A stretch of DNA of 64,000 bases, from contig CAYITD010000004.1 of assembly GCA_964366325.1 (NCBI GenBank), forward strand, positions 10,712 through 74,711. Reading direction: 5' to 3'. The first letter of the stretch is position 1. Each line of letters begins with the position of its first letter. The DNA comes from Candidatus Woesearchaeota archaeon. Its GTDB lineage: Archaea; Nanobdellota; Nanobdellia; Pacearchaeales; GW2011-AR1. The notes under the pieces are model-generated. The model searched no databases. It saw nothing but the letters and a program-made list of their open reading frames with translations, and was not told the DNA's origin. Positions 27,886 to 52,787 of this stretch are shown one piece after another. The translations under genes and the position numbers were made by a program.

Positions 27886-28226
27886 TCACTTTAAAGATAA
27901 GACCTGCAAACCATGTTTGTTTATTTCATCTTCTGTCCAAAATTTGATGTCTTTGGTTTTTAGTACATAAGTCCCTTCTTTTTCAATAACTCTTCCTGTA
28001 CAGTTTTTTATTTTTGGATCAAATTCTTTCAATACCAATATATCGCCAATATTACATTTGAAATCTGCCAATCTTAAATAAAAATACCTCACAGCTTGCT
28101 GTGTTTGGGATTTTTAAGCCTCAAACTGAGACTGATCATATGAACTCAGTTCGAGCAGTCAAAGTTCTTTTTTCAATTCAATATTTTTTCAAAATGCTCT
28201 GGCCAGGTTTTCTTTTCTATTTTCAT
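27886..28226 (-). pseudogene. DUF3850/ASCH-like gene disrupted by an 80-nt insertion and a TGA at 28173-28175
   Basis: MKIEKKTWPEHFEKILN*KKNFD|insert|LRLADFKCNIGDILVLKE; removing 28078-28157 re-fuses the frame. Confidence 0.85.
28078..28157 (-). mobile_element. 80-nt double-hairpin insertion element (subfamily 1, copy B)
   Basis: Shares TGCTCGAACTGAGTT, ATCAGTCTCAGTTTGAGGCTTAAAAAT and ATTTTTAT with 52693-52787; follows TTGAC; no TSD. Confidence 0.8.
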
Positions 28227-28228
28227 AA

Positions 28229-28465
28229 TTATTTTTTATTGTTAAGAATCTTATCTATTTTTTCTTCGATTCTTTTAATATCTTCTTTTATTGAGTATAT
28301 TTCTTTTAGACGCTTTCTGTTTAGAAACCAATTCACAATATGTAAGATTGTCCATAGAATTATAACGACTCCAATTGCCTGAAGCCAAAGCCCTATTTTT
28401 CCTAGAAGTTTTATAGCATCCCCCGCAGTGTCTGAGAAACCTATAATGTTTGATAAATCGACCAT
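28229..28465 (-). CDS. Small membrane protein with coiled-coil tail
   Basis: One TM followed by IKEDIKRIEEKIDKIL. Confidence 0.65.
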   Translation of the reverse strand: MVDLSNIIGFSDTAGDAIKLLGKIGLWLQAIGVVIILWTILHIVNWFLNRKRLKEIYSIKEDIKRIEEKIDKILNNKK

Positions 28466-28517
28466 TCTCTTTTTAAGAACAACATACTTAAAAACCCTGT
28501 GATAATTTATCTTTTGT

Positions 28518-28589
28518 GGCTCTGTAGCTCAGTGGTAGAGCACTGCTCTCATGAGGCAGGGGTCGGGAGTTCAATCCTCCCCAGAGCCA
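28518..28589 (+). tRNA. tRNA with CAT anticodon, non-initiator (elongator Met or Ile2)
   Basis: Acceptor GGCTCTG/CAGAGCC, anticodon arm CTGCT-CTCATGA-GGCAG, T arm GGGAG-TTCAATC-CTCCC; G1-C72. Confidence 0.9.
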
Positions 28590-28955
28590 TTAGGAAATCA
28601 TTCTTAATCCGTCATTTTCCTTTCTTGGAATTATGTGTATGTGCGCATGCATCACAACTTGACCTGCTGGAGGAAGATTATTCATTATAATATTAAATCC
28701 GTCTCCTTTCTTTTTTTCTAATAAATCAGAGGAGACTTTTTTTACCATTTTTAATATTTCTGCTGAGAGTTTTTCTGGAATGTCTAAAATTGTTACATAG
28801 TGCCTTTTTGGAATTATGAGTGTATGGCCTTCTGATTTTGGATTTGCATCAAGAATAGCTATTAAGTTGTCAGATTCTTCTACCTTGGAAGTTTTGATTT
28901 CTCCTTTTATAATTTTACAGAAAACGCAGTTATCATTACGCACTTTTTTCTCCAA
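28590..28955 (-). CDS. HIT family nucleotide hydrolase
   Basis: CVFCKI, GHTLIIPKRH, AGQVVMHAHIHIIPR. Confidence 0.95.
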   Translation of the reverse strand: MEKKVRNDNCVFCKIIKGEIKTSKVEESDNLIAILDANPKSEGHTLIIPKRHYVTILDIPEKLSAEILKMVKKVSSDLLEKKKGDGFNIIMNNLPPAGQVVMHAHIHIIPRKENDGLRMIS

Positions 28956-29754
28956 ATATACTAGAGTAGAAAGTTTGTCTAAACAATTCTCTGTTTATTT
29001 CTTCTCTCCTAAAGTCAAATGGGATGAGCTTTCTAAATAGAGATTTTTTTTCTTTAGTTAATGTTAAAGCTGCTGAAAGATTGCTTATTTCTTTAGAAAA
29101 CTTGGAGTTTTTTTCGTAAATTGGCAGAGGTATTCTTGTGAAGATAGATCTAGTTGCTTTTTTTTCGTCGGGTATTTTAGCTATTACTGGGATATCTGCA
29201 AATTTTTCTATTTCTCTGATAGTTATCTCATATAACGGGTCTCTAATTTTATTTATTATTACTCCAGAAACTGGTTTCCCTCTTGTTTTTGCTAATTTGG
29301 CTGTTTTTAAGGAACAGGAGAGAGTAGGGTAATCTGGAGTTGTTACAATAAACAAGGAATCAGAGGCTAGTATTGTTGATAATATTTCTTCGTTATATGA
29401 TGGAGAAGAATCCAAGATTATAAAATCGTATTTTTCTTTTAAACTTTCTATTTTACTTTTTAATTTAAAGTAGTTTATAAGTTTAGAACTATTATAGTCT
29501 CCTGGAACTACGTCTACTCCGAATTTATGATGTATGGCAGATTCTAATCTGCATTTTTTTTCTAAAACTTCATGTATCGTTTTTTTTGGTTCTACTATAT
29601 CCATATGTAAACCAAGGTTGGGTGCTGAATAATTCGCGTCTATAAGTAATACTTTTTTATTATAATTGTTTGCAAGGTCTGTTGCTAAAGAAGCAGCTAT
29701 TGTTGTTTTCCCTACACCTCCCTTTATCGAAACTAATCCAAGTGTTATTCCCAT
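28936..29754 (-). CDS. MinD/ParA family ATPase
   Basis: KGGVGKTT, LIDAN, DFIILDSSP. Confidence 0.9.
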   Translation of the reverse strand: MGITLGLVSIKGGVGKTTIAASLATDLANNYNKKVLLIDANYSAPNLGLHMDIVEPKKTIHEVLEKKCRLESAIHHKFGVDVVPGDYNSSKLINYFKLKSKIESLKEKYDFIILDSSPSYNEEILSTILASDSLFIVTTPDYPTLSCSLKTAKLAKTRGKPVSGVIINKIRDPLYEITIREIEKFADIPVIAKIPDEKKATRSIFTRIPLPIYEKNSKFSKEISNLSAALTLTKEKKSLFRKLIPFDFRREEINRELFRQTFYSSIFGEKSA

Positions 29755-29862
29755 AACAACAACATGAAAAGGTTTTGTTTTAAATACTTTCTTATAATTT
29801 TTAAGTTAAGATTTTTAGAATTGAGTAGATATTTTAGATAATATTAAAAACTTAAAAATTAT

Positions 29863-30612
29863 TTGGTAGTTATGAGATTTAAAGATAAAGTAGTATTGAT
29901 AACTGGAGCAAGCAGAGGAATAGGAAGATCTACAGCCCTATTATTTGCTAAAGAAGGCGCAAAGGTTATTGTTAATTATCAAAAAGCTGAGAAAGAAGCG
30001 AATGAAGTAGTTAGAGAAATTTCTAAAATTGGATCAGAGGCTATTGTTTTGAAATGTGATGTGTCTAAAGAAGAAGAAGTTAAGAAGATGATTTTTGAGG
30101 GAATTAAAAAATTTGGGAGAATCGATGTTTTAGTAAATAATGCCGGAATTGTATTTGATGTTCCCCTTTTTGAAAAGACTTTAGATCAATGGACTAAAAC
30201 TTTAGGCGTTAATTTAATTGGAGTATTTTTATGCTCAAAATATGTGGCTGCTCATATGAAAAAACAGAAGTCTGGAGTTATTATTAATATCTCTTCTACA
30301 AATGGGATAGACACTTTAAATACAGAATCTGCTGATTATGATGCTTCAAAGACAGGAGTTATAAGTTTGACTAAAAATTTAGCTTCGGAATTAGCTCCAA
30401 ATATAAGAGTTAATTGCATAGCTCCTGGGTGGGTTGGGACAGATATCAATAAAGGTCTGCCAAAGGATTATGTTGCTGAAGAAACTGAACACATACTAAT
30501 GAAAAGATTTGGTAAACCTGAAGAGATAGCAAAGGCTGTTTTATTTTTAGCTTCTGAAGATGCGAGTTTTATAACTAGAACAACTTTAGTGGTTGATGGC
30601 GGTTATATTTAG
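29863..30612 (+). CDS. Short-chain dehydrogenase/reductase (FabG-like)
   Basis: TGASRGIG, NNAG, YDASK, NCIAPG. Confidence 0.93.
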   Translation: MVVMRFKDKVVLITGASRGIGRSTALLFAKEGAKVIVNYQKAEKEANEVVREISKIGSEAIVLKCDVSKEEEVKKMIFEGIKKFGRIDVLVNNAGIVFDVPLFEKTLDQWTKTLGVNLIGVFLCSKYVAAHMKKQKSGVIINISSTNGIDTLNTESADYDASKTGVISLTKNLASELAPNIRVNCIAPGWVGTDINKGLPKDYVAEETEHILMKRFGKPEEIAKAVLFLASEDASFITRTTLVVDGGYI

Positions 30613-30622
30613 TTAAATAATT

Positions 30623-30787
30623 TCTCGCTGCTCTGAATGATGGATATATTTTGCACTCTATTGCTGCGAAGCTCCTCGCTTACGCTGTGGTGTTCCTCAC
30701 TGTGATGAACGAAGGATATATTTTGTGTTTTCTTGATGTGGATCTGCTCGCTGACGCTGCGCGATTCCTCTCTGCGAAACACAAAAT
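30623..30787. repeat. Degenerate ~72-bp tandem repeat (about 2.3 copies) abutting the tRNA-Ala 3' end
   Basis: GGATATATTTTG at 30642 and 30714; CTCGCTTACGCTGTGGTGTTCCTCACTGTGA vs CTCGCTGACGCTGCGCGATTCCTCTCTGCGA. Confidence 0.7.
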
Positions 30788-30858
30788 GGACCTGTCGGGA
30801 ATCGAACCCGAATCTCATCCATGCCATGGATACATAATAACCGTTATAATACAGGCCC
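30787..30858 (-). tRNA. tRNA-Ala(GGC)
   Basis: Acceptor GGGCCTG/CAGGTCC with G3:U70, A73, anticodon arm TATCC-ATGGCAT-GGATG. Confidence 0.92.
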
Positions 30859-30936
30859 TGTAATTTAAAGAAATGGTGTGTTTTTAATAATTACGAATTA
30901 GAAAATAAGACTTAGGCGAATTGTACGAAATAAAAT

Positions 30937-31194
30937 CTACTTAGAGATCCCTTTAGGGTTTGAATTCTTAACTACGAAATAATAGACTGCCGCGCCTAGC
31001 CAATGTACTAGAGCGATTACCAAGATCCAGACTATTTTTTCATTTTCTTTTTTGAAATCTCTTTTTGCACAATCCACTAACATCCAAATCCAAAATACAA
31101 AGAGTAAAATTGCTAGAATCGCTATTATAGCAATCATAATAACTATAAATGGAAATAGAAAAGCCTGTTGCCCTATAATTTGTGAAGTTGCCAT
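30937..31194 (-). CDS. PLDc_N-like small membrane protein
   Basis: FWIWMLVDCAKR...KIVWILVIAL..WLGAAVYYF. Confidence 0.8.
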   Translation of the reverse strand: MATSQIIGQQAFLFPFIVIMIAIIAILAILLFVFWIWMLVDCAKRDFKKENEKIVWILVIALVHWLGAAVYYFVVKNSNPKGISK

Positions 31195-31230
31195 TTCCTA
31201 GGGTATCAAAGAAGTATTTAAACTTATTTT

Positions 31231-32667
31231 TTACTCAAACTGAATTTTTTCTGAGATAAGGTTTCTTATTGTTTCTTTAAGTTTTGAAATTTCTACTCTG
31301 ATTTGTTTTGTTGTGTTCCTGTCTCTAACTGTAACTGTTTTGTCTTTTAATGTTTGTTCATCAACTGTTATGCAATAAGGAGTTCCGATTTCATCATTTC
31401 TCGCATATCTCCTTCCAATTGAGCCAGATTTGTCAAATAATACAGGAAAATCTTCAAGAAGATCATGATAGACTTCGTTTGCTGTTTCGAATTGTTCTCC
31501 TTTTGAAACAAGAGGAAAAATTGCTGCTTTGTAAGGTGCGAGTTTTGGATGTAATCCTAAGATTATGTTTTCTCTTTCTTTGTTGTAGTTGTAGGCTGAA
31601 AGCAAGAAGACTAGAAATGCTCTTTCTACTCCTAATGAGGGTTCACAAACTACTTCTGGAACTACTTTCCCTTTTTCTGGATCTAGAATTTCAAGAGACT
31701 TTTTAGAGTGTTTTTCATGTTGCTTCAAATCATAATCAGAACGGTTTGCAAAACCCTGCAATTCGCGCCAACCCATTGGAAATTCAAATTCAAGATCCCA
31801 GGTATCTGTTGAATAATGGCTTCTTTCTTGTGAAGAGTGTTGTCTTGCCCTAAATTTTTTTGGATCTGCGTTTAAGGAGACGAACCAGGAATATTCAAGA
31901 GCTAGAAAATAGGCATGCCACTCGTTTTTTATAAGTCCTTTTTTGTGAGCATCTAGTATTTTTATTAATTTTCCATCTTTGTTTTTATTTTGATCATCTT
32001 CTGTTAACAAACTTAACTCAATATTTTGAATTTCGTCTAAATATGGGCAGGGCATTCTTGCCGCAATAAAGTATTCTAATTCCATTTGTTCGAATTCTCT
32101 GCTTCTAAATAAGAATTCACGCGGAGATATTTCGTTTCTGAATGCTTTACCTATTTGGGCAATTCCACATGGGAGTTTCATTCTCGCGTTTTCAAAAACA
32201 GAGCGGAAATTAGTGAATATTGACTGCGCTGTTTCAGGACGAAGATATGCTTTTACAGATTCTGAAACTGTAGGGCCAACATTTGTTGTAAACATAGGAT
32301 TGAATTCTCCTTTGATTTCAAAATTTTTATCATCTTTTATTTTTTCTACCTCATGTTTGTCCATTTTCATTTTTTCTTTTGTTTTTTTATTTATAACAAA
32401 ATAATCTATGAAATTTGATACATGGCCTGATGCTTCCCAGACTTTTGGATTTGTTATTATGGATCCATCAATTCCAACAGTATCTTCTCTATTATGCACA
32501 TGGAATTTCCACCATTCTTTTTTGATGTTGTTTTTCAATTCAACACCTAAAGGACCGAAATCCCAGAAACCTGCTAAAGATCCATAAATCTCTCCAGATG
32601 GATAAACGAAACCCTTTCTTTTACAAAAAGTTGCTAACTCATCTATACTAATTTTACTATCTGTCAT
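31231..32667 (-). CDS. glyS: Glycine--tRNA ligase (alpha2 type)
   Basis: WDFGPLG, YLRPETAQ, AFRNEISPR.FLFRSREFEQME, EPSLGVER. Confidence 0.97.
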   Translation of the reverse strand: MTDSKISIDELATFCKRKGFVYPSGEIYGSLAGFWDFGPLGVELKNNIKKEWWKFHVHNREDTVGIDGSIITNPKVWEASGHVSNFIDYFVINKKTKEKMKMDKHEVEKIKDDKNFEIKGEFNPMFTTNVGPTVSESVKAYLRPETAQSIFTNFRSVFENARMKLPCGIAQIGKAFRNEISPREFLFRSREFEQMELEYFIAARMPCPYLDEIQNIELSLLTEDDQNKNKDGKLIKILDAHKKGLIKNEWHAYFLALEYSWFVSLNADPKKFRARQHSSQERSHYSTDTWDLEFEFPMGWRELQGFANRSDYDLKQHEKHSKKSLEILDPEKGKVVPEVVCEPSLGVERAFLVFLLSAYNYNKERENIILGLHPKLAPYKAAIFPLVSKGEQFETANEVYHDLLEDFPVLFDKSGSIGRRYARNDEIGTPYCITVDEQTLKDKTVTVRDRNTTKQIRVEISKLKETIRNLISEKIQFE

Positions 32668-32715
32668 ATATTTAACTAAAAAAATATCTATTTAAATTAT
32701 ACTAAATTTGCCCAA

Positions 32716-32889
32716 CTATTTCATCTTTTGAGCGTTTTCTTTGGATACTACTCTCCAACATTCGTGACTTCCAGAAGGAGACTTAGCAACAACAAAGAAT
32801 CTCCCACTTTTTTCTACGAGTCTGTAACTATCTGTTGTGAACTTGTTTTTAGTCTTCACATCGTAAAATTCTATTTTTTCTTTTCCCAT
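32716..32889 (-). CDS. 57-aa CC1-like small chromatin/DNA-binding protein (not in ORF track)
   Basis: MGKEKIEFYDVKTKNKFTTDSYRLVEKSGRFFVVAKSPSGSHECWRVVSKENAQKMK; GGAGGT RBS. Confidence 0.7.
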   Translation of the reverse strand: MGKEKIEFYDVKTKNKFTTDSYRLVEKSGRFFVVAKSPSGSHECWRVVSKENAQKMK

Positions 32890-32952
32890 GAGGTTACCTC
32901 CTTTGTCTTTTATGTCCTGATGATTTTGGGTTTATAAATTTATAGTAAGATA

Positions 32953-33025
32953 AGCGCACGCCAGGACTCGAACCTGGGAAAAGCCGGGCTGCAACCGACC
33001 GCAGTAACCGCTGTGCCACGTGCGC
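32953..33025 (-). tRNA. tRNA-Cys(GCA)
   Basis: Acceptor GCGCACG/CGTGCGC, U73, anticodon arm GTCGG-TTGCAGC-CCGGC. Confidence 0.93.
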
Positions 33026-33085
33026 ATATTTTTTAGTAAAATTGAAGTTATTTAAAGATGTTTGTTTTTACTGAAGAAGTGATAA

Positions 33086-33628
33086 TTAAAATGGCACTTC
33101 TCTTGGAAACCTATCTGGTCTGGAGACTATAGTTGGAAATCTGCTTGGATCGACTCCTTTTGTTAAGTGGACAAGACCTCCTCTAACTTTTTTGCTTTCA
33201 GTAACTTTTGGCAGGGCGGATCTTTTTGCAAACCTTATCCAATTATCATAACCTTCTCCAGTTTCATGATACGCTTTAAATTTATTAATCCATGTCCAAG
33301 GAACTAGCCATAGTTCTCTTTCTGTGACAAATTCTTCTAGGTCTGATGCATCGACAACTTCTATATCTCCTACAGGTTTGCTTAGTTCATAGGTAGCCAA
33401 TCCCCAATATGCAATTCTGCTTCTTCTTCCATATCCTAGTTGATGATTAAGAATCTTCCAGCTAACATAACTATTTTCGTCTCTCACTAAACAGAATTTT
33501 AGTTCTACGACTTTTTCACAATCTCTTAAATCTGCACCAATTCCAGGATTAACTTCCATTCCTAAAACTTCTGCACCCCAAGAATGATGTATTCTTCCAA
33601 TCAAAGAATTATAAGTTCTAGCTTTCAT
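33086..33628 (-). CDS. Hypothetical protein, possible PD-(D/E)xK nuclease fold
   Basis: GIGADL...VVELK motif. Confidence 0.5.
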   Translation of the reverse strand: MKARTYNSLIGRIHHSWGAEVLGMEVNPGIGADLRDCEKVVELKFCLVRDENSYVSWKILNHQLGYGRRSRIAYWGLATYELSKPVGDIEVVDASDLEEFVTERELWLVPWTWINKFKAYHETGEGYDNWIRFAKRSALPKVTESKKVRGGLVHLTKGVDPSRFPTIVSRPDRFPREVPF

Positions 33629-33696
33629 TATTTTTGCTGGAATTTTCTGCTTAAATTGATTGTTGTATTAGATTTGAATTGATAAGGTTTATAAAT

Positions 33697-33719
33697 ATGT
33701 TTATACATGTTTAAACATG
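33697..33719. promoter_or_regulatory. Operator-like palindrome overlapping start codon
   Basis: Perfect CATGTTTAAACATG (33706-33719) preceded by near-copy ATGTTTATACAT; TATA-like TTTATAAA just upstream. Confidence 0.6.
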
Positions 33720-34484
33720 AAAAATGAAGTAATTAAACAAGCTTTCAAACTGGGGAATTCTGCAGGAGTTCTGCTTCCAATCGAGTGGAAAGATAGAAAA
33801 GTAGTGATTAAACTTATTGATAGATCTATTTCTTTAGAATTAATTGAGATTTTAGAAGAAAAGGACTTGTTAAAAAATATAATTGGAATATTTTTAGCTG
33901 GAAGCTACGCAAGAGGAGAGGAAACGGAGGCGAGCGATATAGATATTTTAATTATAACAGACAACATAGATCGGAAGATAAAAACTGGAAAATATGAAAT
34001 AGTTTTGATTTCAAAGGATAAATTTGAAAAGTCTATTTTAAAGAGCATTTATTTGGCTTCATTGATTAATGAGGCAAAAGCGATTTTAAATGGTGATTTA
34101 TTGAAATATTGCAAAAATAAAATTCAAAGCATTTCTATAAAAAATCATATTAACGAGATAAAATCAATGACAAAAATAAATGAAGGATTTGTAGATATTG
34201 ATGGAGAACTTGGAGAAAAGGTCTTGGATGAAACATTATATTCTTTGGTTTTAAGATTAAGAGAATTGTACCTGATTGAATGTTTGAAGAACAGCAAAAT
34301 TCCATCTAATAAGGATTTTATAGACTTGATAAAGAGAGTTGCAAGCGAAGAATGTTACGATTCTTATCTAAGAATTAAAAATGATTTTAAATCGCGGAAG
34401 GTTATATCTGTTGGAGAAGCGAAAGCACTAATAGATGAGATAAAAAAAAGAATTGGAAAATTAGAACATGGTAAAAAGAACTAA
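33717..34484 (+). CDS. AbrB/DUF2080-like domain fused to minimal nucleotidyltransferase
   Basis: KLGNSAGVLLP N-terminus; LAGSYARGE...SDIDILII. Confidence 0.8.
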   Translation: MKNEVIKQAFKLGNSAGVLLPIEWKDRKVVIKLIDRSISLELIEILEEKDLLKNIIGIFLAGSYARGEETEASDIDILIITDNIDRKIKTGKYEIVLISKDKFEKSILKSIYLASLINEAKAILNGDLLKYCKNKIQSISIKNHINEIKSMTKINEGFVDIDGELGEKVLDETLYSLVLRLRELYLIECLKNSKIPSNKDFIDLIKRVASEECYDSYLRIKNDFKSRKVISVGEAKALIDEIKKRIGKLEHGKKN

Positions 34485-34731
34485 CAGATTGGAAAAAGGA
34501 ATTGAAAGTTTAAAGGAAGAGATAGAGACTCATTTCGATAAATTGGATAGAGATATAATCGAGGATGATGGAATGTTAGCAGATTATCATATTAAAGAAA
34601 TAGATAAGAGTCTTATTACTGCTTTGGAGCGTAAAATCAGTTTATTAGGTCAAGATAAAGCAGGTGTTGAATTAATAAAAAAATTTAGAAATCGCTTGGA
34701 AGAATATAAGAAGAAGTTGAATATGGGTTGA
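34468..34731 (+). CDS. Small helical hypothetical protein, partner of upstream nucleotidyltransferase
   Basis: Overlaps upstream gene; 87 aa. Confidence 0.65.
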   Translation: MVKRTNRLEKGIESLKEEIETHFDKLDRDIIEDDGMLADYHIKEIDKSLITALERKISLLGQDKAGVELIKKFRNRLEEYKKKLNMG

Positions 34732-34793
34732 TTAGTTTGGAATGTTTTAATGAGAGATTAAGTCTTTTGTGATTTAAAAAATCCTGTCAAAAA

Positions 34794-34868
34794 CGCTCCT
34801 GACAGGATTTGAACCTGCGACCTACTGCTTAGAAGGCAGTTGCTCTATCCGGGCTGAGCTACAGGAGC
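34794..34868 (-). tRNA. tRNA-Arg(TCT)
   Basis: Acceptor GCTCCTG/CAGGAGC, anticodon arm ACTGC-CTTCTAA-GCAGT, TTCAAAT T-loop. Confidence 0.94.
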
Positions 34869-34944
34869 TTATCAATAAAATCAAGAGATGGTTTATAAAA
34901 CTTGTTAGGAAAAGCTTTATAAATGATTCTTTTGAGATATAGCT

Positions 34945-35199
34945 ATGGATATTAAGATTTTAAAGCAGGAGAAGAATGGTCTGGAATTTACTATAGATAG
35001 CATTACAGTTGCTGAGATTTTACGTGTTTATTTAAATAAGAATAATACTGATTTTGCTGCCTGGAGAAGGGTACACCCGGATGAGCCTCTTTTAATGAAG
35101 GTTGAGAGTTCTGGGAAAAATGTTGTTAAAGAGATATCAGAGGCTGTAGAAATGATAAAAAAAGATCTGAATAAGATACAGGCTTTAGTTAAAAAATAA
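34945..35199 (+). CDS. rpoL: RNA polymerase subunit L (Rpo11)
   Basis: TVAEILRVYL...FAAWRRVHP..PLLMKV. Confidence 0.75.
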   Translation: MDIKILKQEKNGLEFTIDSITVAEILRVYLNKNNTDFAAWRRVHPDEPLLMKVESSGKNVVKEISEAVEMIKKDLNKIQALVKK

Positions 35200-35266
35200 T
35201 GTAGAGAATTATTAATTCAAACTTCTCTATAGCATTTTTTATATACTTGGTTTTTTCTTTATTTGA

Positions 35267-39163: not shown

Positions 39164-40015
39164 ATGACACAGAAAGAAACGAGCAAGATATTTACTAAAG
39201 GAGAACTGAAAGTTATGAACAAGAGACTTAGGAATGAGCGATTGACACAACAGGATTCAAATTATCTTAGTAAATTTATTAGGCCTAAACTAAAGGAGAT
39301 TAGGGAGACGAATGCGGGCTATTTGCTTGATAATTTGGAATACAATCAAAAGGCGTTGTCAATTGAAAACAAGATAAGAGAAGAGTTGATGAAGAAAATA
39401 AAGGAAGTGGACTCGATAACTCTCTATGGTTCTGTTGTTCAGAACAATTATAAGAAGTATAATGATATTGATATCTTAGTTTTGGTTAATAAGAAATTCT
39501 GGAATAAACTTGGAGAGAAGTATAGAACCATATTGGAAATTAAGAAAATGTTGAAGAAACGTTCTATTAGAGTTGATTTGGAGATATATTATAAAAATGA
39601 TTTTGAAAGAGCATATTTTTCTAGTCCTTCTTTGATTTATCAATTGAAAGATAGAAAAACTATTTATGGAAATCTAGATTTGTCTAATAAATTTGAGATA
39701 TCTAAAATTGATTTAAGGATGAAAGCAGATTATAGCATTATAGAAGAAGATTCTTCAAGCCTTGAGATATATAAAGCGATTAGGAATATAATTTTGATTC
39801 GATTGATTTTAATGAAAGTAGTTGATAATAATGAATTATATAAAACAATTAATGAAGAGCTTGGTGGAAACTTGGTAATGAGGTTAAAGGAGAATAGGGC
39901 TTCTTCTATTGATAGGAAAATAGCAATAATGCATTTGCATAACTTGTTGAAACTCACTTTAAAATATTTGGAGAAACAAAAATGGGAAAAAATCAAATTA
40001 TGTCAAGATTCTTGA
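39164..40015 (+). CDS. Nucleotidyltransferase-domain protein
   Basis: LYGSVVQ...NDIDILVL motif; last 4 residues contributed by inserted element. Confidence 0.8.
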   Translation: MTQKETSKIFTKGELKVMNKRLRNERLTQQDSNYLSKFIRPKLKEIRETNAGYLLDNLEYNQKALSIENKIREELMKKIKEVDSITLYGSVVQNNYKKYNDIDILVLVNKKFWNKLGEKYRTILEIKKMLKKRSIRVDLEIYYKNDFERAYFSSPSLIYQLKDRKTIYGNLDLSNKFEISKIDLRMKADYSIIEEDSSSLEIYKAIRNIILIRLILMKVVDNNELYKTINEELGGNLVMRLKENRASSIDRKIAIMHLHNLLKLTLKYLEKQKWEKIKLCQDS

Positions 40016-40356
40016 ATAGGAATCTTGAGCATCCAAAAGTTCAGAACAAACATAAAAACTTTTTGATAAGATCGTTAGGAAGATGCATTGGAAATGTGGT
40101 TATGCATAAATTGTTGTTAGAATACACCAACAAACCAGAATCTAAGGGTTTTATAAAAAATGAAATAAAGGAGTATAGTTCTGATGCATTTGAGAAGGCT
40201 CAAGAATTTAATTGGAATGTTGAAGATAAAGAAGAGATTAAAGAACTTGCGATTGAGAGAGTAAAAAATCTTAGTGAAGGCTACAAGGATGTTGTTTATA
40301 CAGATGAGAAAATGGAAAAATTTATTGATGAAACTATAGAAGAGATGATGCTGTGA
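39982..40356 (+). CDS. Hypothetical helical protein carrying a 22-codon in-frame element insertion
   Basis: Without 40002-40067 it reads MGKNQIIRSLGRCIGNVVMHKLL. Confidence 0.7.
   Translation: MGKNQIMSRFLNRNLEHPKVQNKHKNFLIRSLGRCIGNVVMHKLLLEYTNKPESKGFIKNEIKEYSSDAFEKAQEFNWNVEDKEEIKELAIERVKNLSEGYKDVVYTDEKMEKFIDETIEEMML
40002..40067 (+). mobile_element. 66-nt double-hairpin insertion element (subfamily 2)
   Basis: TTAT|GTCAAGATTC...GAATCTTGAGCATCCAAAAGTT...AACTTTTTGAT; 18-nt core identical to 48634 copy. Confidence 0.78.
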
Positions 40357-44913: not shown

Positions 44914-44916
44914 ATT

Positions 44917-45627: not shown

Positions 45628-45746
45628 TTATATTTTTGAGGATTTTCAATTAAAAACCTTTCTGTGGTGCTAATAAAATTATTAGTTTTTGTAGTCATTT
45701 GCTAATTAATATAAATGTATATAAATTAGTTTAAAAAGCTAGTGTT

Positions 45747-46337
45747 ATGCCTTTGCGAACAAATGATAATTTGGATGATTTACCTGATTTGCCTCCTTTG
45801 AGAACTCCTTTTTCTTCTAATAGCTCGATACCTTCTGTTACGGAGATTGAGGGTGAGGAGATACATAATCTTCCGTCTTTCCCAGATTCTCCTGCACACA
45901 ATAGTTTTTCGCAAGCAGTTATAAAAGAAGCGGTAAGTGATAGGCATGACACTGGAGAAAATGTTTTAGAGATGAGAGAGTGGACTCCTACGAAATTTAA
46001 AGATTCTCAGGGTGCAAGGCAACCTGACCAGAGCAAAGATTTTTTGACTAACAGCGACTATGTTGAGAGAAATAATTTTAACAAACCTATAGTTAGAAAC
46101 AGAGGTGATATGAACAAAGGCCCTGATGTTTTTGTTAAAATTGATAAATTTTATTCTGCTAAAAAAACTATTAGTGATGTAAAGGCTAAACTTGAGGAGA
46201 TAGATTCCCTTATCAATAAAGTTAGGGAAGTCAAATTGAGAGAGGAACAGGAGCTGTCTTCTTGGGAAAGGGAATTTAATGATATAAAGACTAGGCTCAA
46301 AGAAGTTACTGAGAATATATTTGAGAGAGTTGAGTAA
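45747..46337 (+). CDS. Hypothetical protein (Pro-rich N-terminus, coiled-coil C-terminus)
   Basis: PDVFVKIDKF...EEQELSSWE. Confidence 0.7.
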   Translation: MPLRTNDNLDDLPDLPPLRTPFSSNSSIPSVTEIEGEEIHNLPSFPDSPAHNSFSQAVIKEAVSDRHDTGENVLEMREWTPTKFKDSQGARQPDQSKDFLTNSDYVERNNFNKPIVRNRGDMNKGPDVFVKIDKFYSAKKTISDVKAKLEEIDSLINKVREVKLREEQELSSWEREFNDIKTRLKEVTENIFERVE

Positions 46338-46674
46338 AATGGGATCAGAATATGTTGGAATTTCTTCCCTTGATATGAATAGATCAAAGACAGTCGTTTT
46401 GCAGGTTCATCTTGAGATACTGAATTTGCTTAGGAGCTTTTCAGCCTATAAGGATTTGCGTTCGGAGGAGTTAACGGTAAAAGTTGCTTTGAAAAGCAAA
46501 ATAGGTGAGGCTTTTGATTTATTGCATAAACTAGATAAGCAACTTCCTCACCCTAAGTATAAGACTCCTTTATTTAGTCAAGAAAGTAAGAGAACTATAG
46601 AACGCAACTTATCTCTGGAAGAAGAGATTGAGGATATAACGAGAAAGTTACACGCTTTACAAACAGAGATTTAG
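46321..46674 (+). CDS. Hypothetical protein
   Basis: Overlaps upstream gene; coiled-coil end; likely ATG at 46339. Confidence 0.65.
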   Translation: MRELSKMGSEYVGISSLDMNRSKTVVLQVHLEILNLLRSFSAYKDLRSEELTVKVALKSKIGEAFDLLHKLDKQLPHPKYKTPLFSQESKRTIERNLSLEEEIEDITRKLHALQTEI

Positions 46675-46739
46675 AAAAGGGATTCAGAGATTTAGAAAAG
46701 GGATTCAGAGATTTAGAAAAGGGATTCAAAGATTTTAAA
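46664..46739. repeat. 21-bp tandem repeat, 3 perfect copies plus a partial
   Basis: CAGAGATTTAGAAAAGGGATT at 46664, 46685 and 46706. Confidence 0.95.
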
Positions 46740-46762
46740 TATTGTAGAAAGTTTTTGTTTGT

Positions 46763-48544
46763 ATGGTAAAAACTAGACAAGAGCTTATAGAATTTTATTT
46801 GGATTTTTTCAATAGAAACAACCATGCTATTATTCCTTCTGCTTCTATTGTTCCAGATAATGATTCTAGTGTTCTCTTTACTACTGCAGGCATGCAGCCT
46901 CTTACGCCTTTTCTTCTTGGTCAAAAACACCCTCTTGGAAACAGAGTTTGCAGTGTGCAGAAGTGCATAAGGACTGGAGATATAGAGGAGGTTGGAGATG
47001 AAGTTCACCATACTTTTTTTGAAATGCTTGGAAATTGGAGTTTTGGAGATTATTTTAAAGAAGAAGCTATAATTTATAGTTTTGAATTTTTAACTAAATT
47101 TCTTGGAATTCCTAAAGAAAAGCTGGCTGTTAGCTGCTTTTCTGGAGATGATTCTATTGAAAGAGATGAAGTATCTTTTGAGATTTGGGGATCTTTAGGA
47201 ATTCAAAGGGAAAGAATAAAATTCTTGCCTAGAGAAAATAATTGGTGGGGGCCTGCTGGAGAGACAGGACCATGCGGGCCAGATACTGAAATTTTTTATT
47301 GGACTAAAAAAGGTAAAGCTCCGAAAGTTTTTGATCCTATTGATAAAAATTGGGTCGAGATATGGAATGATGTTTTTATGCAATATGAAAAAACAAAAGA
47401 TCAAAGATATTTGATGCTGAAGCAGAAGAATGTCGATACTGGAATGGGTGTTGAGAGAACACTGGCTGCTTTGAATGGATTACAGGATAATTATAGGTCT
47501 TCTATTTTTCTTCCAGTTATAAAAGAAATAGAAAAACTCTCAAGAAAGAAATACGAAGGAAACGAAAAAGGAATGAGGATAATTGCTGATCATCTGAGAG
47601 CCTCTGCTTTCATTCTTGGGGACGATCATTCTATAAAACCTTCTAATATTGGAAGAGGTTATGTTTTAAGAAGGCTAATAAGGAGAGCTGTTAAATATGG
47701 TCTAGCTTTGGGAATAAAGGATAATTTTTGCAAGGTTGTAGGAAAAGTAATTATTGAACAGTATAATGATTATGATGAATTGAAAAGGAATAAAAAAATT
47801 ATTTTTGAGGAGCTGGAAAAAGAAGAGAAAAGGTTTAAGGAGACTTTAGAAAAAGGAATTAAAAAATTTGAAGAAATTTGCAAGTTAGCTTCTAATAAAA
47901 TATCGGGTGAAAATGCTTTTCTCCTTTTTCAAAGTTATGGCTTTCCGGTTGAAATGACTTTAGAGTTAGCTGAAGAAAAAGGAAAAGGAGTAGACTTGGA
48001 GAGTTATAAATTAGAATTTGAAAGACATCAGAAACTTAGCAGAACTTCTTCTGCAGGCATGTTTAAATCTGGATTGGCAGATAGTGGTGAGAAAACTACT
48101 AGATTACATACTGCTACTCACTTATTGAATGAGGTTTTAAGAAAAGTTTTAGAGGATAAGATAAGGCAAAGAGGATCAAATATAACTTCTGAGAGATTGA
48201 GATTTGATTTTAATTTTTCAAGAAAGTTAACTGATGAGGAAATTAAGGATATTGAAAAAATAGTTAATGAAAAGATAAATTCAGAACTTAAAGTAATAAG
48301 AGAGGAGATGGCTCTTAAGGAGGCTGTTTCTTCTGGAGCGCAATCTGAATTTGGAGCTAAATATCCTGAGAAAGTTTCCGTTTATACTATTTTGGATAAG
48401 AAAGAAAAGAAAGGGTGGTTCTCTAAGGAAGTTTGTACAGGACCTCACGTTGGGAACACAAAGGAAATAGGAAAGTTCAAGATAATTAAGGAGGAAGGAG
48501 TTGCTGCTGGAATAAGGAGGATAAAGGCGGTTGTTTTGGATTGA
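46763..48544 (+). CDS. alaS: Alanine--tRNA ligase, short form lacking C-Ala domain
   Basis: LFTTAGMQP, QKCIRTGD, HHTFFEMLGNWSFGDYFK, DTGMGVER, HTATH, CTGPH. Confidence 0.96.
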   Translation: MVKTRQELIEFYLDFFNRNNHAIIPSASIVPDNDSSVLFTTAGMQPLTPFLLGQKHPLGNRVCSVQKCIRTGDIEEVGDEVHHTFFEMLGNWSFGDYFKEEAIIYSFEFLTKFLGIPKEKLAVSCFSGDDSIERDEVSFEIWGSLGIQRERIKFLPRENNWWGPAGETGPCGPDTEIFYWTKKGKAPKVFDPIDKNWVEIWNDVFMQYEKTKDQRYLMLKQKNVDTGMGVERTLAALNGLQDNYRSSIFLPVIKEIEKLSRKKYEGNEKGMRIIADHLRASAFILGDDHSIKPSNIGRGYVLRRLIRRAVKYGLALGIKDNFCKVVGKVIIEQYNDYDELKRNKKIIFEELEKEEKRFKETLEKGIKKFEEICKLASNKISGENAFLLFQSYGFPVEMTLELAEEKGKGVDLESYKLEFERHQKLSRTSSAGMFKSGLADSGEKTTRLHTATHLLNEVLRKVLEDKIRQRGSNITSERLRFDFNFSRKLTDEEIKDIEKIVNEKINSELKVIREEMALKEAVSSGAQSEFGAKYPEKVSVYTILDKKEKKGWFSKEVCTGPHVGNTKEIGKFKIIKEEGVAAGIRRIKAVVLD

Positions 48545-48961
48545 TGATGAAAGAGAGAAAAAGCAAAAAAGGAATAAGGAATTTATTATTAATATCAGGA
48601 TTGTCTTTAGCGGGTTTTGTTGCATCTTCTTATGTCAAGAATTCTAAAAACACGCACTAAAGTGCGTGGAAATTCTTGAGCATCCAAAAGTCCAAACAAA
48701 ACTCAAGGACTTTTTGATTTAGTTGATAGAGTTTATGATAGGAAACCTGTTGAGAGTAATGGCGTTTATGATATTAGGATAGGCTCTTCTGATGGAAATG
48801 GGAGAAGGTTAGATGAGAGTTATATTATTAACTATAATGAGGATGGAACTGCAAGTGTTATTATTTTAGATGATGCTGGTTTGGGGAAAAGAGTTAAAGA
48901 AGATAAAGAAGTTCGTTTGATGAGTGTTGCTGGTGTTGATTTTTCTATTAAGAGAAAGTGA
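48544..48961 (+). pseudogene. 110-aa signal/TM-anchored hypothetical gene split by an 85-nt element
   Basis: MMKERK...GFVASSY|insert|LVDRVYDRKP...FSIKRK*; removing 48634-48718 joins the frames exactly. Confidence 0.75.
48634..48718 (+). mobile_element. 85-nt double-hairpin insertion element (subfamily 2)
   Basis: TTAT|GTCAAGAATT..CACGCAC-TAAA-GTGCGTG..AATTCTTGAGCATCCAAAAGTCC...GGACTTTTTGAT; no TSD. Confidence 0.82.
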
Positions 48962-49009
48962 TTTTTTGATTGTGAAATAATTTATAAATAGTGATAAATT
49001 GTAAAATTA

Positions 49010-49345
49010 ATGGAAGAAAAAGTAAAATATGAGGATTTTGCGAAACTTGATTTAAGAGTTGGGAGGATAGTTGAGGTCAAGGATCATCCTAACGCTGATA
49101 AGCTTCTTGTTCTTAAGGTTGATTTTGGGGGAGAGGAGAGGACTATTGTTGCAGGTTTGAAAGCATATTATAAGAAAGAGGAGTTAGAGGGAAAGGAAGG
49201 AATATTCGTCTATAATCTAGAATCTAGTGTTTTGAGAGGGATAGAAAGCAATGGAATGATTTTGGCTGTCGCATCTAAGGGAAGAGAAGAAGTTGTTATT
49301 TTAACTCCTGAAAGAGAGATGGATGAAGGATTGAAAGTTTCTTAG
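49010..49345 (+). CDS. tRNA-binding OB-fold protein (Trbp111 / MetRS C-terminal-like)
   Basis: FAKLDLRVGRI, HPNADKL, LRGIESNGMILA. Confidence 0.92.
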   Translation: MEEKVKYEDFAKLDLRVGRIVEVKDHPNADKLLVLKVDFGGEERTIVAGLKAYYKKEELEGKEGIFVYNLESSVLRGIESNGMILAVASKGREEVVILTPEREMDEGLKVS

Positions 49346-49359
49346 ATTTTTGTTGTGTT

Positions 49360-49414
49360 TTTTTGACATCTCAAGAACCAGACAAGCTATACACTCTAGT
49401 GTATTTTTCTTGAC
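49360..49414 (-). mobile_element. Partial subfamily-2 element (first hairpin only)
   Basis: Minus strand TTTAT|GTCAAGAAAA-ATACAC-TAGA-GTGTAT...TTCTTGAGATGTCAAAAA. Confidence 0.55.
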
Positions 49415-49432
49415 ATAAATAATTAAAAGGAA

Positions 49433-50356
49433 TTGGAGGTAGAGATATTTATGAAAGTCATAGTAACTGGAGGCGCAGGATTTATAGGATCATGGGTAGT
49501 TGATTCTTTGATTGAAAAAGGACATCAAGTTACTGTGATAGATAATTTGTCTAGTGGAAATAAATCTAATGTAAATCACAAGGCAAAATTATATGAGATA
49601 GATTTATTGGGAGATATTGATTCTATATTTGAAAATGAAAAACCTGAATATGTTTTTCATTTTGCTGCGCAAATAAATGTTAGAAAATCAATAGAGGATC
49701 CAAAGAAAGATGCCGAAATTAATATTCTTGGAACATTGAATTTGCTTGACAAATGCGTTAAACATAGAGTTAAGAAAATTATATTCTCTTCAAGTGGAGG
49801 AGCTATTTATGGTGGGAAAGAGGTTATTCCTACTCCTGAAGAGAGTGAAACCAGACCAGAGTCTCCTTATGGAATTGCAAAGTTGACTATTGAACTTTAC
49901 TTAGAGTTTTATAAGAAAGTTTTTGGTTTAGATTACGTTGCTTTGAGATATAGCAATGTTTATGGGCCTAGACAAAGTTCTAAGGGGGAAGCAGGTGTTG
50001 TAGATATATTTTTTAAAAGCCTAGAAAATGGGGAAACACCAGTTATTTTTGGAGATGGGGAACAAACGAGAGATTATGTTTATGTAAAAGATGTTGCACA
50101 TTGTAATATTTTAGCAATGAATTTAAGTGGGATTTTTAATGTTGGTACAGGAATTGAGACAAGCGTTAATGAAATATTTGAGAAAATTGCTAAAGTATCA
50201 AATGCTCCGATGATAAAAAGAAATGGTGCAAAAATAGAGGGAGAGCTTTTGAGGAGTGCGCTTGATTGTTCGAAGTTAAATAAGATTGTTGGTTGGTCGC
50301 CAAAATATAATCTTGATTCTGGACTTATGGAGACTTATGAGTTTTTTAAATCTTAA
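49433..50356 (+). CDS. NAD-dependent epimerase/dehydratase (GalE-like)
   Basis: TGGAGFIGS, HFAAQ, SSSGGAIYG, YGIAK, RYSNVYGP. Confidence 0.93.
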   Translation: MEVEIFMKVIVTGGAGFIGSWVVDSLIEKGHQVTVIDNLSSGNKSNVNHKAKLYEIDLLGDIDSIFENEKPEYVFHFAAQINVRKSIEDPKKDAEINILGTLNLLDKCVKHRVKKIIFSSSGGAIYGGKEVIPTPEESETRPESPYGIAKLTIELYLEFYKKVFGLDYVALRYSNVYGPRQSSKGEAGVVDIFFKSLENGETPVIFGDGEQTRDYVYVKDVAHCNILAMNLSGIFNVGTGIETSVNEIFEKIAKVSNAPMIKRNGAKIEGELLRSALDCSKLNKIVGWSPKYNLDSGLMETYEFFKS

Positions 50357-50373
50357 TTCCTTCTAAACACGTT

Positions 50374-51129
50374 TTATCTACCAAACATTCTGCCAAACAA
50401 AGAGATTTTTTCCTTATATCCACTGTGGCCTATAAGCCCTGCAGCTATTCTTTTGTATTCTCTTGCAGCTTTTGATTTTGGATAGACATGAATAAGCGCA
50501 TCTTTCATCACAAGAGCCGCTTGGAATTTGTCATCACTTGGTATTACTCCAAGAATTGGTAGTTCAAGCATTTCTTCTATATTTTGGATTGGCATTTCTG
50601 TCTTTGAATGCTTTACTTTTGTTATTATAACACCTTTGACTGTTTTTCCCATTTGTTCTATAAGTTTTGAAACTTTTAGAGCATCTGTAACTGCTGGAAT
50701 TTCTGGGTTTGTTACAATAATCAGCTCATCTGCGGAGTCTATTGCAGCCACAGCCTCATCTCCAAGCCCTGCTGCCGAGTCAAAGATCACAATATCTGAA
50801 CTTTTCTTTAATTTTTTTGCAACTTCTTTTAGTTTTGAATGATCAAGATTTTTTAATTCATTTATGGATAGAGAGGAAGGCATAACTTTTGTTCCAGATT
50901 CATGCTCATAAATTGCTTCTGATATTTTTGCTTTCCCTAATAAGACGTGATTTAGACTTATAGGCACTATTGGCGCGCCAAGATGAAGGCCTATATTTGG
51001 TGTTGAGAGATTCGCGTCAACTACAATTACATCTTTTCCAAATGAGTTTATGGCTGCGGCGAGATTAATAGAAGTTGTTGTTTTTCCGACTCCTCCCTTA
51101 CCTGATGTTATAGTTATAATTTTACCCAT
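50374..51129 (-). CDS. minD: Cell division ATPase MinD
   Basis: SGKGGVGKTT, DANLSTPN, DSAAGLG, TNPEIPAVTDA. Confidence 0.9.
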   Translation of the reverse strand: MGKIITITSGKGGVGKTTTSINLAAAINSFGKDVIVVDANLSTPNIGLHLGAPIVPISLNHVLLGKAKISEAIYEHESGTKVMPSSLSINELKNLDHSKLKEVAKKLKKSSDIVIFDSAAGLGDEAVAAIDSADELIIVTNPEIPAVTDALKVSKLIEQMGKTVKGVIITKVKHSKTEMPIQNIEEMLELPILGVIPSDDKFQAALVMKDALIHVYPKSKAAREYKRIAAGLIGHSGYKEKISLFGRMFGR

Positions 51130-51166
51130 TTTTCATAAATACTAAGATTTTTTAACGCAGGAGGGA

Positions 51167-51592
51167 TTACTTTATGTAACTTATAAATCTTTCTAATATA
51201 GTTGAATAGTCTTTTAATTGGAGGAGGTTTATGTTTATAATTTCTCCTTTATAGGTCACTTTAAGGTTGACTCCTTTTCTGAATTCATTTTCTCTAACCT
51301 TTTCTAGTTTCTCCATATCTCTAAATAGTTCGTAAAGATTTAGAGCATCTACTATTTCTTGATTTTTGGAGTAGATGCTTTTTATTTGTATTAGTTTAGC
51401 TCGTGGTGCATCTGGGACTGCTTTCCATTTTTTTTCTTTTTTTGCTTTTTCTATCAGTCTGTCTATACATCTGTCTATCATATTCTTCCATCTAGAAATT
51501 AGGTTTATAATTACGTCACAAGTCTTTGTGTACTTTAAACTCACATACAGGAGATGATCTGCGCTGATTTTCTCTTTTATTATATCTTCCAT
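51167..51592 (-). CDS. Conserved hypothetical protein
   Basis: ADHLLYVSLKYTKTCDVI...EFRK. Confidence 0.7.
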   Translation of the reverse strand: MEDIIKEKISADHLLYVSLKYTKTCDVIINLISRWKNMIDRCIDRLIEKAKKEKKWKAVPDAPRAKLIQIKSIYSKNQEIVDALNLYELFRDMEKLEKVRENEFRKGVNLKVTYKGEIININLLQLKDYSTILERFISYIK

Positions 51593-51708
51593 TAAAAAAA
51601 ATACAGTTTTTTGCCTGAGGACTTACATAGTCTGAGCTGTTTAAATACTTTATTGTTTATGCATCCTAGTTCTATTGAAATGATCTTGGAGAAATTATGT
51701 AAACTTGC

Positions 51709-52152
51709 TTAATTTTCTTCCACTATAATTTTTCCTAACATAGAAGGATGAATTCCGCAATGATATGAATGTTCTCCTGCGCTTTCAAAAGTTAAAGTGT
51801 ATGACTCCCCTTTAGATAGTTCTGTCGATGCAGGGAAAGAGTCGAGATCTGAGATTATTGTATGCACAAAGGAGTCTTCATTTTCCCATTTAACTGTCTC
51901 GTCTTTTTTTATTTTGATTTCTTTTGGTGAGAAGCTGGAATCAGATATTAAAATTATGTGCGTTTTGCTATCTTCTCCAATTGTTTCTTTTGCTTTGTTT
52001 TCTGAAGTCGCCTCTTTTTTACCAAATGGATAGGAGATTATGCCTGAGATCATTAAAACTGCAACTATGAAAATTATTATGAGTTTTTTCATTTTATTAT
52101 TCTTTTGTTTAATTTTGATAATACTAAGAAAGCAGAAGTATTGCTTCTGCAA
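51709..52152 (-). CDS. Cupredoxin (plastocyanin/azurin-like) exported protein
   Basis: FSPKEI, VHTI, YHCGIHPSM type-1 Cu ligands. Confidence 0.9.
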   Translation of the reverse strand: MQKQYFCFLSIIKIKQKNNKMKKLIIIFIVAVLMISGIISYPFGKKEATSENKAKETIGEDSKTHIILISDSSFSPKEIKIKKDETVKWENEDSFVHTIISDLDSFPASTELSKGESYTLTFESAGEHSYHCGIHPSMLGKIIVEEN

Positions 52153-52450
52153 TATCTTTTGTTTTTTCTAATGCTTCTCTTGATTCTTCTAAAGACTTGC
52201 CGGTTTTTTCGGATATAAGTTGAACGTCATCTTCTGAGATTACCGAACTTTGTTCTGTTATTTCACCTGAAATTTGAAACGTTTCCTGTCCATGGAATTT
52301 CACTTTCTGTATAGACGGATTGTCTATTGTTATTTTTCCATCTTCTTTTTCTATTATCACACGGAGAGCTGATATTTCTTCCTGCTGCATGCCCATCTGT
52401 TTTAGCATTGACTGCATCTTTCTTGGATCGATATTCATTCCTGGAATCAT
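52124..52450 (-). CDS. nac: Nascent polypeptide-associated complex protein
   Basis: DPRKMQSMLKQMGM, ETFQISG, UBA-like C-terminus. Confidence 0.93.
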   Translation of the reverse strand: MIPGMNIDPRKMQSMLKQMGMQQEEISALRVIIEKEDGKITIDNPSIQKVKFHGQETFQISGEITEQSSVISEDDVQLISEKTGKSLEESREALEKTKDIAEAILLLS

Positions 52451-52484
52451 TGTGTTTTCAATTAATAAGGTTATAAATAGTTTT

Positions 52485-52649
52485 CTAAGCAGTTGGCCAG
52501 ATTATCTTTAGAAATGTTACGATCACTAAAATGCCTATTGCAAAACCAATTACTTGGGTTGGGGTAATCATGAATCTGCTTTGATATTCTTCGTCGTATC
52601 TTGTAATTCCTCCAAAACCTCCAGGAAGGTGTATCTTGTTTTCAGCCAT
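52485..52649 (-). CDS. secG: Preprotein translocase subunit Sec61beta (not in ORF track)
   Basis: MAENKIHLPGGFGGITRYDEEYQSRFMITPTQVIGFAIGILVIV. Confidence 0.88.
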   Translation of the reverse strand: MAENKIHLPGGFGGITRYDEEYQSRFMITPTQVIGFAIGILVIVTFLKIIWPTA

Positions 52650-52692
52650 TAAAATAAGCAGAAGCTAGGGTATAAAAAACTTTGTTTTTTAT

Positions 52693-52787
52693 TGCTCGAA
52701 CTGAGTTAATACTCCGCAGCTTGCTGCGATCAGTCTCAGTTTGAGGCTTAAAAATACCCCACAGCTTGCTGTGATTGGGATTTTTAT
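52693..52787 (+). mobile_element. 95-nt double-hairpin insertion element (subfamily 1, copy A)
   Basis: TTTAT|TGCTCGAACTGAG...CTCAGTTTGAGGC; inner hairpins CGCAG-CTTG-CTGCG and CACAG-CTTG-CTGTG; ends ATTTTTAT. Confidence 0.8.

Follow-up and report, generated by a model that had tools for sequence, protein, structure and literature searches.

What are the short segments, each able to fold into two adjacent stems, that lie in and beside the genes of a Candidatus Woesearchaeota archaeon, and how did they come to be there? We address the question in a stretch of 64,000 nt (the window, C4:10712-74711), which belongs to a genome of 1.05 Mb in 20 contigs with 32% GC (label G000); loci outside the window are given by genome, contig and position. 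Genes of archaeal type occur in the window, among them one for an ATP-dependent DNA ligase, and the population contigs matching it come from Hainich groundwater wells (H43, H51). The segments are very probably non-autonomous miniature derivatives of IS200/IS605-type elements, similar to palindrome-associated transposable elements (PATEs), in a DPANN archaeon. An initial annotation had gathered five segments into one family of insertion elements. Four of them are mobile repeats with a real shared architecture; they fall into two sequence families, A and B, and the fifth has no second copy in the genome.

28078-28157, minus strand: E1, decayed copy of family A, 80 nt, after TGAC and within a DUF3850 gene (covariance-model score 64.8 bits)
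40002-40067, plus strand: E2, minimal copy of family B, 66 nt, after TTAT, with the two outer stems but devoid of inner hairpins
48634-48718, plus strand: E3, copy of family B, 85 nt, after TTAT, with only the left of the inner hairpins
49360-49414, plus strand: E4 (doubtful), a small hairpin enclosed by the 7-bp stem TCAAGAA/TTCTTGA, loosely like the left stem of family B
52693-52787, plus strand: E5, full-length copy of family A, 95 nt, after TTAT and near the consensus (119.4 bits)

E1, E2, E3 and E5 each fold into two adjacent stems, in agreement with the positions and folds first assigned to them. All belong to dispersed repeats of 50-122 nt, too short to accommodate a transposase gene. 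Family A, which includes E1 and E5, has the consensus TGCTCGAACTGAGTT(C)AATACTCCGCAGCTTGCTGCGAYCAGTCTCAGTTTGAGGCTTAAAAATACCCCACAGCTTGCTGTGATTGGGATTTTTAT with a mean column identity of 88%, and the high copy number expected of it is confirmed: the genome yields 41 nhmmer matches and 40 matches to the covariance model R1, and 34 loci were curated (about 25 with a length of 72-97 nt, 9 with one of 50-53 nt). Family B, with E2 and E3, has the sequence GTCAAGA...TCTTGAGCATCCAAAAGTCC...GGACTTTTTGAT and three clear copies in G000; a second copy of E3 is found at G000:C3:68008-68094 with 92% identity. A third family, C, lies outside the window segments, is represented by about seven loci beginning with TGTCAAATTGGGTTTAATACCCCGTAGCTCTGCTGCG... 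after TTAT, and follows the same layout as the other two.

A full element reads, after the flanking TTAT, as the left terminus, AATAC(C/T)C, an inner hairpin L and the complement of the left terminus, followed across a spacer of 2-4 nt by the complement of the right terminus, a hairpin R and the right terminus ending in TTTTTAT or TTTTTGAT. Folded as a single strand, it forms two stems side by side, and a small hairpin caps each of them. Terminal inverted repeats are absent, the left end TGCTCGAACTGAG being unrelated to the reverse complement of the right end, ATAAAAATCCC; instead, the subterminal hairpins CGCAGCTTGCTGCG and CACAGCTTGCTGTG are located 23 nt and 14 nt from the respective ends. 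Of all features, the motif TTTAATACCC directly 5' of hairpin L varies least between subfamilies. In relatives, full-length copies of family B follow the layout of family A, with AAAC(C) ahead of both of their two inner hairpins, and minimal forms of 60-66 nt devoid of inner hairpins are found in three genomes.

The outer stems are maintained by compensatory change. Across 29 matches from eight relatives' genomes the two stems are 98% and 95% paired, and changes on both sides are seen in 8 of 10 and 9 of 9 pairs, respectively (17 of 19 in total), in an alignment that had been fitted to the covariance model. None of 500 shuffles reaches these values, and sliding the partners against each other lowers the pairing to about 50%. 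The inner parts of the elements are less stable. E1 has lost its inner left hairpin, and the core of its right hairpin is flipped. In the family-A forms of 50-51 nt, hairpin L is joined directly to hairpin R with crossover points that differ between copies, and these forms are therefore products of independent repeat-mediated deletions. Decay would thus proceed by deletion between the similar hairpins, by loss of inner hairpins (both in E2, the left one in E1) and by the flip of the right hairpin core seen in E1. One locus, G000:C2:160340-160378, consists of a solo right hairpin module (TAAAAATACTCCACAGCTTACTGTGATTGGGATTTTTAT) with the left half absent, and could be either a 5'-deleted remnant or an independent unit.

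Insertion after TTAT, proposed from the window copies, exceeds chance expectation by far. TTAT directly precedes 21 of the 31 family-A copies with tabulated flanks, against a genome background of 1.2%, and stands to the left of all seven family-C copies and of all nine family-B copies sampled from eight genomes, eight of which end in TGAT on the right. The remaining left flanks of family A are TCAC (three copies), TAAT (two), TGAC, TTAC, TGAT, TTGT, TTCT and TTAA. Among the copies listed, the right end of family A is TTAT whatever the left flank, with exceptions at C3:101224 (TTAC) and C1:17791 (TTTTATT); left flanks TCAC, TGAC and TGAT thus occur with a right end TTAT. The right end is independent of the left flank, and the TTAT shared by both sides is therefore not a target duplication, a possibility also rejected for family B with its terminal TGAT. 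The copy at G000:C3:101224-101318 is the only one of family A with the same word other than TTAT, namely TTAC, as both left flank and right end, and it falls outside a peel-and-paste model unless the pair reflects coincidence or conversion. At two loci, family A directly follows the TTTAT end of a family-C copy, as expected if the ends of elements mimic the target.

The absence of target duplication, as well as the boundaries of E3, can be read directly from an empty site. In contigs L028 and L029, obtained from replicate samples of well H51, precisely the positions 48634-48718 are missing, and the 1216 nt outside the insertion differ from the window by 3 mismatches (1213/1216 identical). The empty allele reads TCTTAT/TTAGTT, and the occupied allele reads TCTTAT, 85 nt ending in TGAT, then TTAG; only the dinucleotide AT at the junction is ambiguous, which fixes the boundaries of E3 to within 2 nt. 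The occupied allele is present in contigs L068 and L069 from well H43. E3 is a presence/absence polymorphism at the DNA level between wells of one aquifer, and can serve as a strain marker between them. The re-fused product of its host gene also exists uninterrupted in the public collection, as the 100% identical protein P0001, next to a homologue of 111 aa with 73% identity (P0003). All four population contigs examined for E2 carry it, and E5 is present in L030 and L032. Empty sites for E1, E2 and E5 were not found in the population contigs, where the sequence contains the element or else ends within it, nor in a look-up of alaS. The contigs that reach E1, and one that reaches E5, break within the element. 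Two of the short-read population contigs, L031 and L067, end inside copies of family A; the elements therefore cause assembly breaks in such genomes.

Three of the window copies lie in or across coding sequences, and the initial annotation held that their deletion re-fuses the reading frames exactly. This is correct for E3, with its uninterrupted counterpart elsewhere, holds for E1 as regards collinearity, and is trivial for E2, whose 66 nt are in frame in any case. The two interrupted genes are as follows.

27886-28226, minus strand: host of E1, a DUF3850/ASCH-like pseudogene (residues 3-66 align with positions 2-65 of the Pfam profile PF12961)
48547-48961, plus strand: host of E3, coding for a protein of 109 aa whose hydrophobic N-terminus resembles a signal or anchor; in G000 the insertion splits and frameshifts the gene

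Removal of E1 restores an open reading frame of 86 aa, the modal length among the 120 homologues listed, with no indel at the junction. The restored frame contains an in-frame TGA (28173-28175, minus strand) in place of the near-invariant Gly18 (GGA). An alternative genetic code for this TGA is rejected: alaS ends in TGA TGA TGA, and the codon is one base away from the GGA of the invariant glycine. The host of E1 is a pseudogene with two independent lesions, the element and the TGA, and the second of them argues against rescue of the gene at the level of RNA. E2 sits on the overlap of the genes 39164-40015 and 39982-40356. The original stop codon of the former, which encodes an NTP-transferase, has been split by E2 (T/AA), and the gene now ends four codons into the element (...KIKL-CQDS*).

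Elsewhere in the genome, two family-A copies of 96 nt (G000:C9:19501-19596 and G000:C5:1119-1214) are in frame and open, add 32 aa each to an AbiEii-like protein and a VanZ-like membrane protein, and by their frames are predicted to be read through. The AbiEii-like host measures 260 aa, as opposed to 226-230 aa in most of about 120 homologues listed, the extra 32 aa being the element. It is placed exactly between ELGY and (R/N)KEKNY, and its removal leaves 228 aa collinear with the homologues; such insertions are derived. The gene-breaking copies E1 and E3 have lengths not divisible by three. Altogether, at most about 5 of the approximately 37 copies of families A and B lie inside genes.

A candidate source of transposition activity is encoded in the same genome. 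Its sole PF01797 gene, at G000:C3:120690-121055 (E = 5e-32), lies outside the window. Over its full length (~140 aa) the product scores 121 bits for the NCBIfam IS200/IS605 equivalog, whose cut-off is 55, and it is related to the solved TnpA structures of Sulfolobus, ISDra2 and IS608. Its translation, read by eye, contains the HUH motif (HVH) and the tyrosine in FWSDGGYIGTVG. It is an intact IS200-type Y1 (HUH) transposase. On its two sides the gene has hairpins in direct orientation, CCCCGCAGCTTGCTGCGA and CCCCGCAGCTCTGCTACGA, which correspond to those inside the elements of families A and C: the flanks GGGGTTTACCCCGCAGCTTGCTGCG and CCCCGCAGCTCTGCTACG compare with TGGGTTTAATACCCCGTAGCTCTGCTGCG of family C and AATACTCCGCAGCTTGCTGCG of family A, and the upstream hairpin has a lead-in GGGTTTA..ACCCC resembling that of family C. 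Mobilisation in trans, suggested initially in view of the lack of a transposase in the window, gains support from these matching hairpins. The anticipated tnpA with the same ends is found in part, as a Y1 tnpA with related hairpins; the outermost termini are not shared, and a search of the genome for a TnpB or IscB partner returns only zinc-ribbon matches below threshold (E >= 0.058). IS200-type copies in the genus end in ...TTCAC, a word also found as a left flank of family A.

The distribution of the elements among relatives is patchy. Across 41 genomes (G000 and its relatives; 71-95% complete), matches to family A number 40 in G000, 34 in G020 and 1-10 in nine others, and are absent from the remaining 30, including eleven congeners. 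Within the genus, five genomes have 40, 34, 10, 4 and 4 matches, five have 1-2, and the eleven have none. The core motif of family B occurs 0-15 times per genome, with 11-15 occurrences in some congeners and 0-1 in controls with the reversed pattern. Y1 transposases are found in 17 of the 41 genomes, often as multiple and degraded copies; congeners carry 1-7.

Copies of family A are concentrated at the ends of genes. In 20 of the 34 curated copies, the right end is located within -4 to +46 nt of a stop codon that belongs to a gene on the other strand, and in six of these 20 the terminal TTAT, which reads ATAA on the gene strand, itself supplies the stop codon. In the window, nothing separates the right end of E5 from the stop codon of nth (52788-53408, minus strand). 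This placement is explained by the target, since TTAT is equivalent to ATAA and the end of the element repeats the target, so that an insertion at ...A TAA regenerates the stop. Adjacencies of element ends and gene ends within 60 nt are antisense in 24 of 29 cases. Orientation is uniform in some contigs (7/7 plus in C1, 6/6 minus in C5, 5/5 minus in C9). Both element orientation and GC skew track gene direction in the 20 contigs, where an effect of replication is inseparable from it. A replication-strand bias, looked for by way of GC skew, did not emerge; the curated list yields a bias with gene direction instead.

Two copies of family A, at G000:C3:46315-46408 and G000:C5:51471-51564, have near-identical flanks (GACAATTCTGTTGAT before the element and TATGTCAC..AACAG.ATTGTC after it) that themselves form an inverted repeat. 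These copies seem to lie inside another repeated unit that was later duplicated.

Insertion 3' of TTAT (less often of TCAC, TGAC, TTAC or TGAT), subterminal hairpins and the lack of terminal inverted repeats uphold the assignment to the PATEs of the IS200/IS605 type. According to the 2011 description, PATEs of haloarchaea lack a transposase and terminal inverted repeats, possess near-terminal palindromes related to those of IS200/IS605-type elements, and include forms of 52 bp (PMC3119063). In Haloquadratum walsbyi and others they display a 5' targeting sequence of 4-5 nt, no target duplication, strain-specific insertions and insertions adjacent to one another, and the 52-bp 'terminal-only' forms of HqIRS46 are attributed to repeat-mediated removal of the core between two palindromes (PMC3119063). 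The present elements are alike in the missing transposase gene and terminal inverted repeats, subterminal palindromes, 5' target word, lack of duplication, strain-specific insertions and side-by-side insertions, as well as in core-deleted forms, which here are 50-51 nt long with differing crossover points, as opposed to about 52 bp. They are unlike PATEs in their host, a DPANN archaeon of about 1 Mb with 32% GC, in their shorter length (50-122 nt), and in their partner, a tnpA-only element of the IS200 type, whereas the haloarchaeal set is rich in IS1341/tnpB. Each terminus of the present elements is paired to a central segment, a pairing not met in the passages of PMC3119063 consulted; its conservation at both termini may go beyond the literature consulted. 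Our literature search returned no paper naming these elements, and only in this narrow sense does the suggestion hold that they may be undescribed in this lineage; their kind, on the other hand, has been known since 2011 (PMC3119063). They are a known kind of selfish DNA and do not represent a new mechanism.

The likeness extends to the IS200 group proper (IS608, ISDra2; TnpA structures 2a6m, 2vhg, 2xm3): there, too, the Y1 HUH transposase measures about 140 aa, one strand bears subterminal hairpins, and the elements insert 3' of a word of four or five nucleotides, duplicate nothing and have precise empty sites. The window copies differ from this group in that they encode nothing and in that their left and right cleavage words are the same (TTAT) or nearly so; in IS608 the two words differ (TTAC and TCAA). 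Small palindromic repeats that lie in frame in genes and are read through are also typical of Rickettsia palindromic elements, which are unrelated in sequence; the present copies are mostly intergenic, and others break genes. We know of no transposase for the Rickettsia elements.

In the mechanism proposed here, the single Y1 TnpA of the genome, supplied in trans, would bind the hairpins of the top strand and cut 3' of both the TTAT that flanks the element and the TTAT or TGAT at its end. The strand would be excised as a circle, the donor resealed, and the strand pasted 3' of another TTAT with no duplication of the target. In each of the three families, joining the right end to the left end and taking the reverse complement gives roughly the sequence of the element's middle, so that the termini zip onto the centre and the cleavage sites come to lie side by side. 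As a circle, the element would form a rod closed by two predicted transposase-binding hairpins. We regard it as possible, though rather doubtful, that the conserved double-hairpin fold is an adaptation and not an accident. Should the fold promote excision and integration, or loss and gain independent of the transposase, the elements would constitute a distinct self-folding subclass of miniature elements of the IS200 type, typical of DPANN archaea, and their forms of 50-66 nt would rank among the smallest mobile DNAs known.

Several observations weigh against derivation from IS200/IS605-type elements with mobilisation by the resident enzyme. Transposition is deduced from its traces, only one polymorphic site was found, and precise loss of E3 through slippage involving the TTAT that flanks it and its terminal AT is indistinguishable from its gain. 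The outermost 10-13 nt at either terminus of the resident tnpA element differ from those of families A-C, and its putative right end is ...CTTCAC, not TTTAT. The family-B copies of G000 have no hairpin like those of tnpA, though the polymorphic E3 is one of them. The genome with 34 family-A matches, G020, contains a transposase fragment only, and another with four matches (G004) contains no transposase; this mismatch is weak counter-evidence because of the incompleteness of the genomes. Finally, element orientation does not follow GC skew as predicted for insertion into the lagging-strand template, and its bias is explained by gene direction instead.

The exact restoration of reading frames upon deletion of E1 and E3 is also what would be expected if the segments were removed at the level of RNA, as bulge-helix-bulge introns or self-cleaving RNAs, or bypassed through ribosome skipping, so that the interrupted genes would yield normal protein; the G:T positions of the stems would then be G:U wobbles. 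The E3-free allele is DNA, however, in two independent metagenome assemblies, and the host of E1 is dead anyway owing to the nonsense mutation at an invariant glycine. Intragenic copies are few, and those of family A that keep the host frame intact would be translated, not removed. In the predicted folds, neither of the two junctions falls in a bulge of 3 nt beside a helix of 4 bp, and Rfam returns only tRNAs at gathering scores, with nothing meaningful for E5 and E3 even at E <= 10. Such an explanation is extremely improbable. A primary service to the host in the form of bidirectional terminators or small-RNA genes would agree with the adjacency of 20 of 34 copies to stop codons, with a hairpin and T5 tract offered in both directions, and with the compensatory changes that keep the stems. 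Yet the position at stop codons follows from the identity of TTAT with ATAA together with purifying selection in a genome about 90% covered by long open reading frames. Orthologous copies are patchily present and decay freely, and some destroy genes, which leaves a primary function for the host very improbable.

The presence of one Y1 gene in the genome, with hairpins on both sides, and of the majority of copies at gene ends recalls the repetitive extragenic palindromes (REPs) and bacterial interspersed mosaic elements of Proteobacteria, short and abundant hairpin repeats that are maintained by the host and serviced by a single-copy domesticated Y1 transposase (REP-associated tyrosine transposase) which they flank. 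The hairpins around the present tnpA are direct, not inverted, and the transposase is a full-length match to the IS200/IS605 equivalog. Congeners carry multiple transposase copies, many of them degraded, as is the case for insertion sequences. Copies inside genes, some of which are broken by them, and patchy presence even within the genus likewise speak against this system, which we consider quite improbable here. A further reading, for family B in particular, is mobilisation by something other than the resident TnpA, either another enzyme or replication slippage or template switching across the folded double hairpin, guided by the TTAT...(T/G)AT microhomology. In its favour, the family-B copies of G000 share no hairpin with the tnpA flanks and yet include the polymorphic E3, minimal forms of 60-66 nt devoid of inner hairpins recur in three genomes, and the pairing of the termini to the centre brings the junctions side by side. 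The full-length family-B copies of relatives nevertheless have the two AAAC(C)-preceded hairpins in the layout of family A, and the TTAT target with no duplication is common to all three families. Beyond the sub-threshold TnpB-like zinc ribbons no candidate enzyme turned up, none having been specifically sought, and slippage accounts for loss of copies but not for their spread to new TTAT sites. A different mobiliser is accordingly improbable.

As miniature derivatives of IS200/IS605-type elements, the segments provide a base-precise example of such elements, active or recently active, in a DPANN archaeon with a reduced genome. They account for the split genes (DUF3850 and the 109-aa protein), the 32-aa insertions in conserved proteins and the contig breaks in this lineage. 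The architecture of paired termini offers a concrete substrate design for Y1 transposases and leaves the general picture of element movement unchanged. For annotation, the repeats are best masked and the interrupted genes flagged.

The remaining segment of the window, E4, shows neither a second stem nor a TTAT flank, its fold is weak (z = -1.85), and it is at best a remnant. Matches to the pattern TTGAG..AAAA at 57634 and 30226 are coding sequence and not elements. A tRNA of 88 nt at 19038-19125 on the plus strand was detected by Rfam with 55.7 bits and missed by ARAGORN in bacterial mode; it is probably an intron-containing archaeal tRNA.

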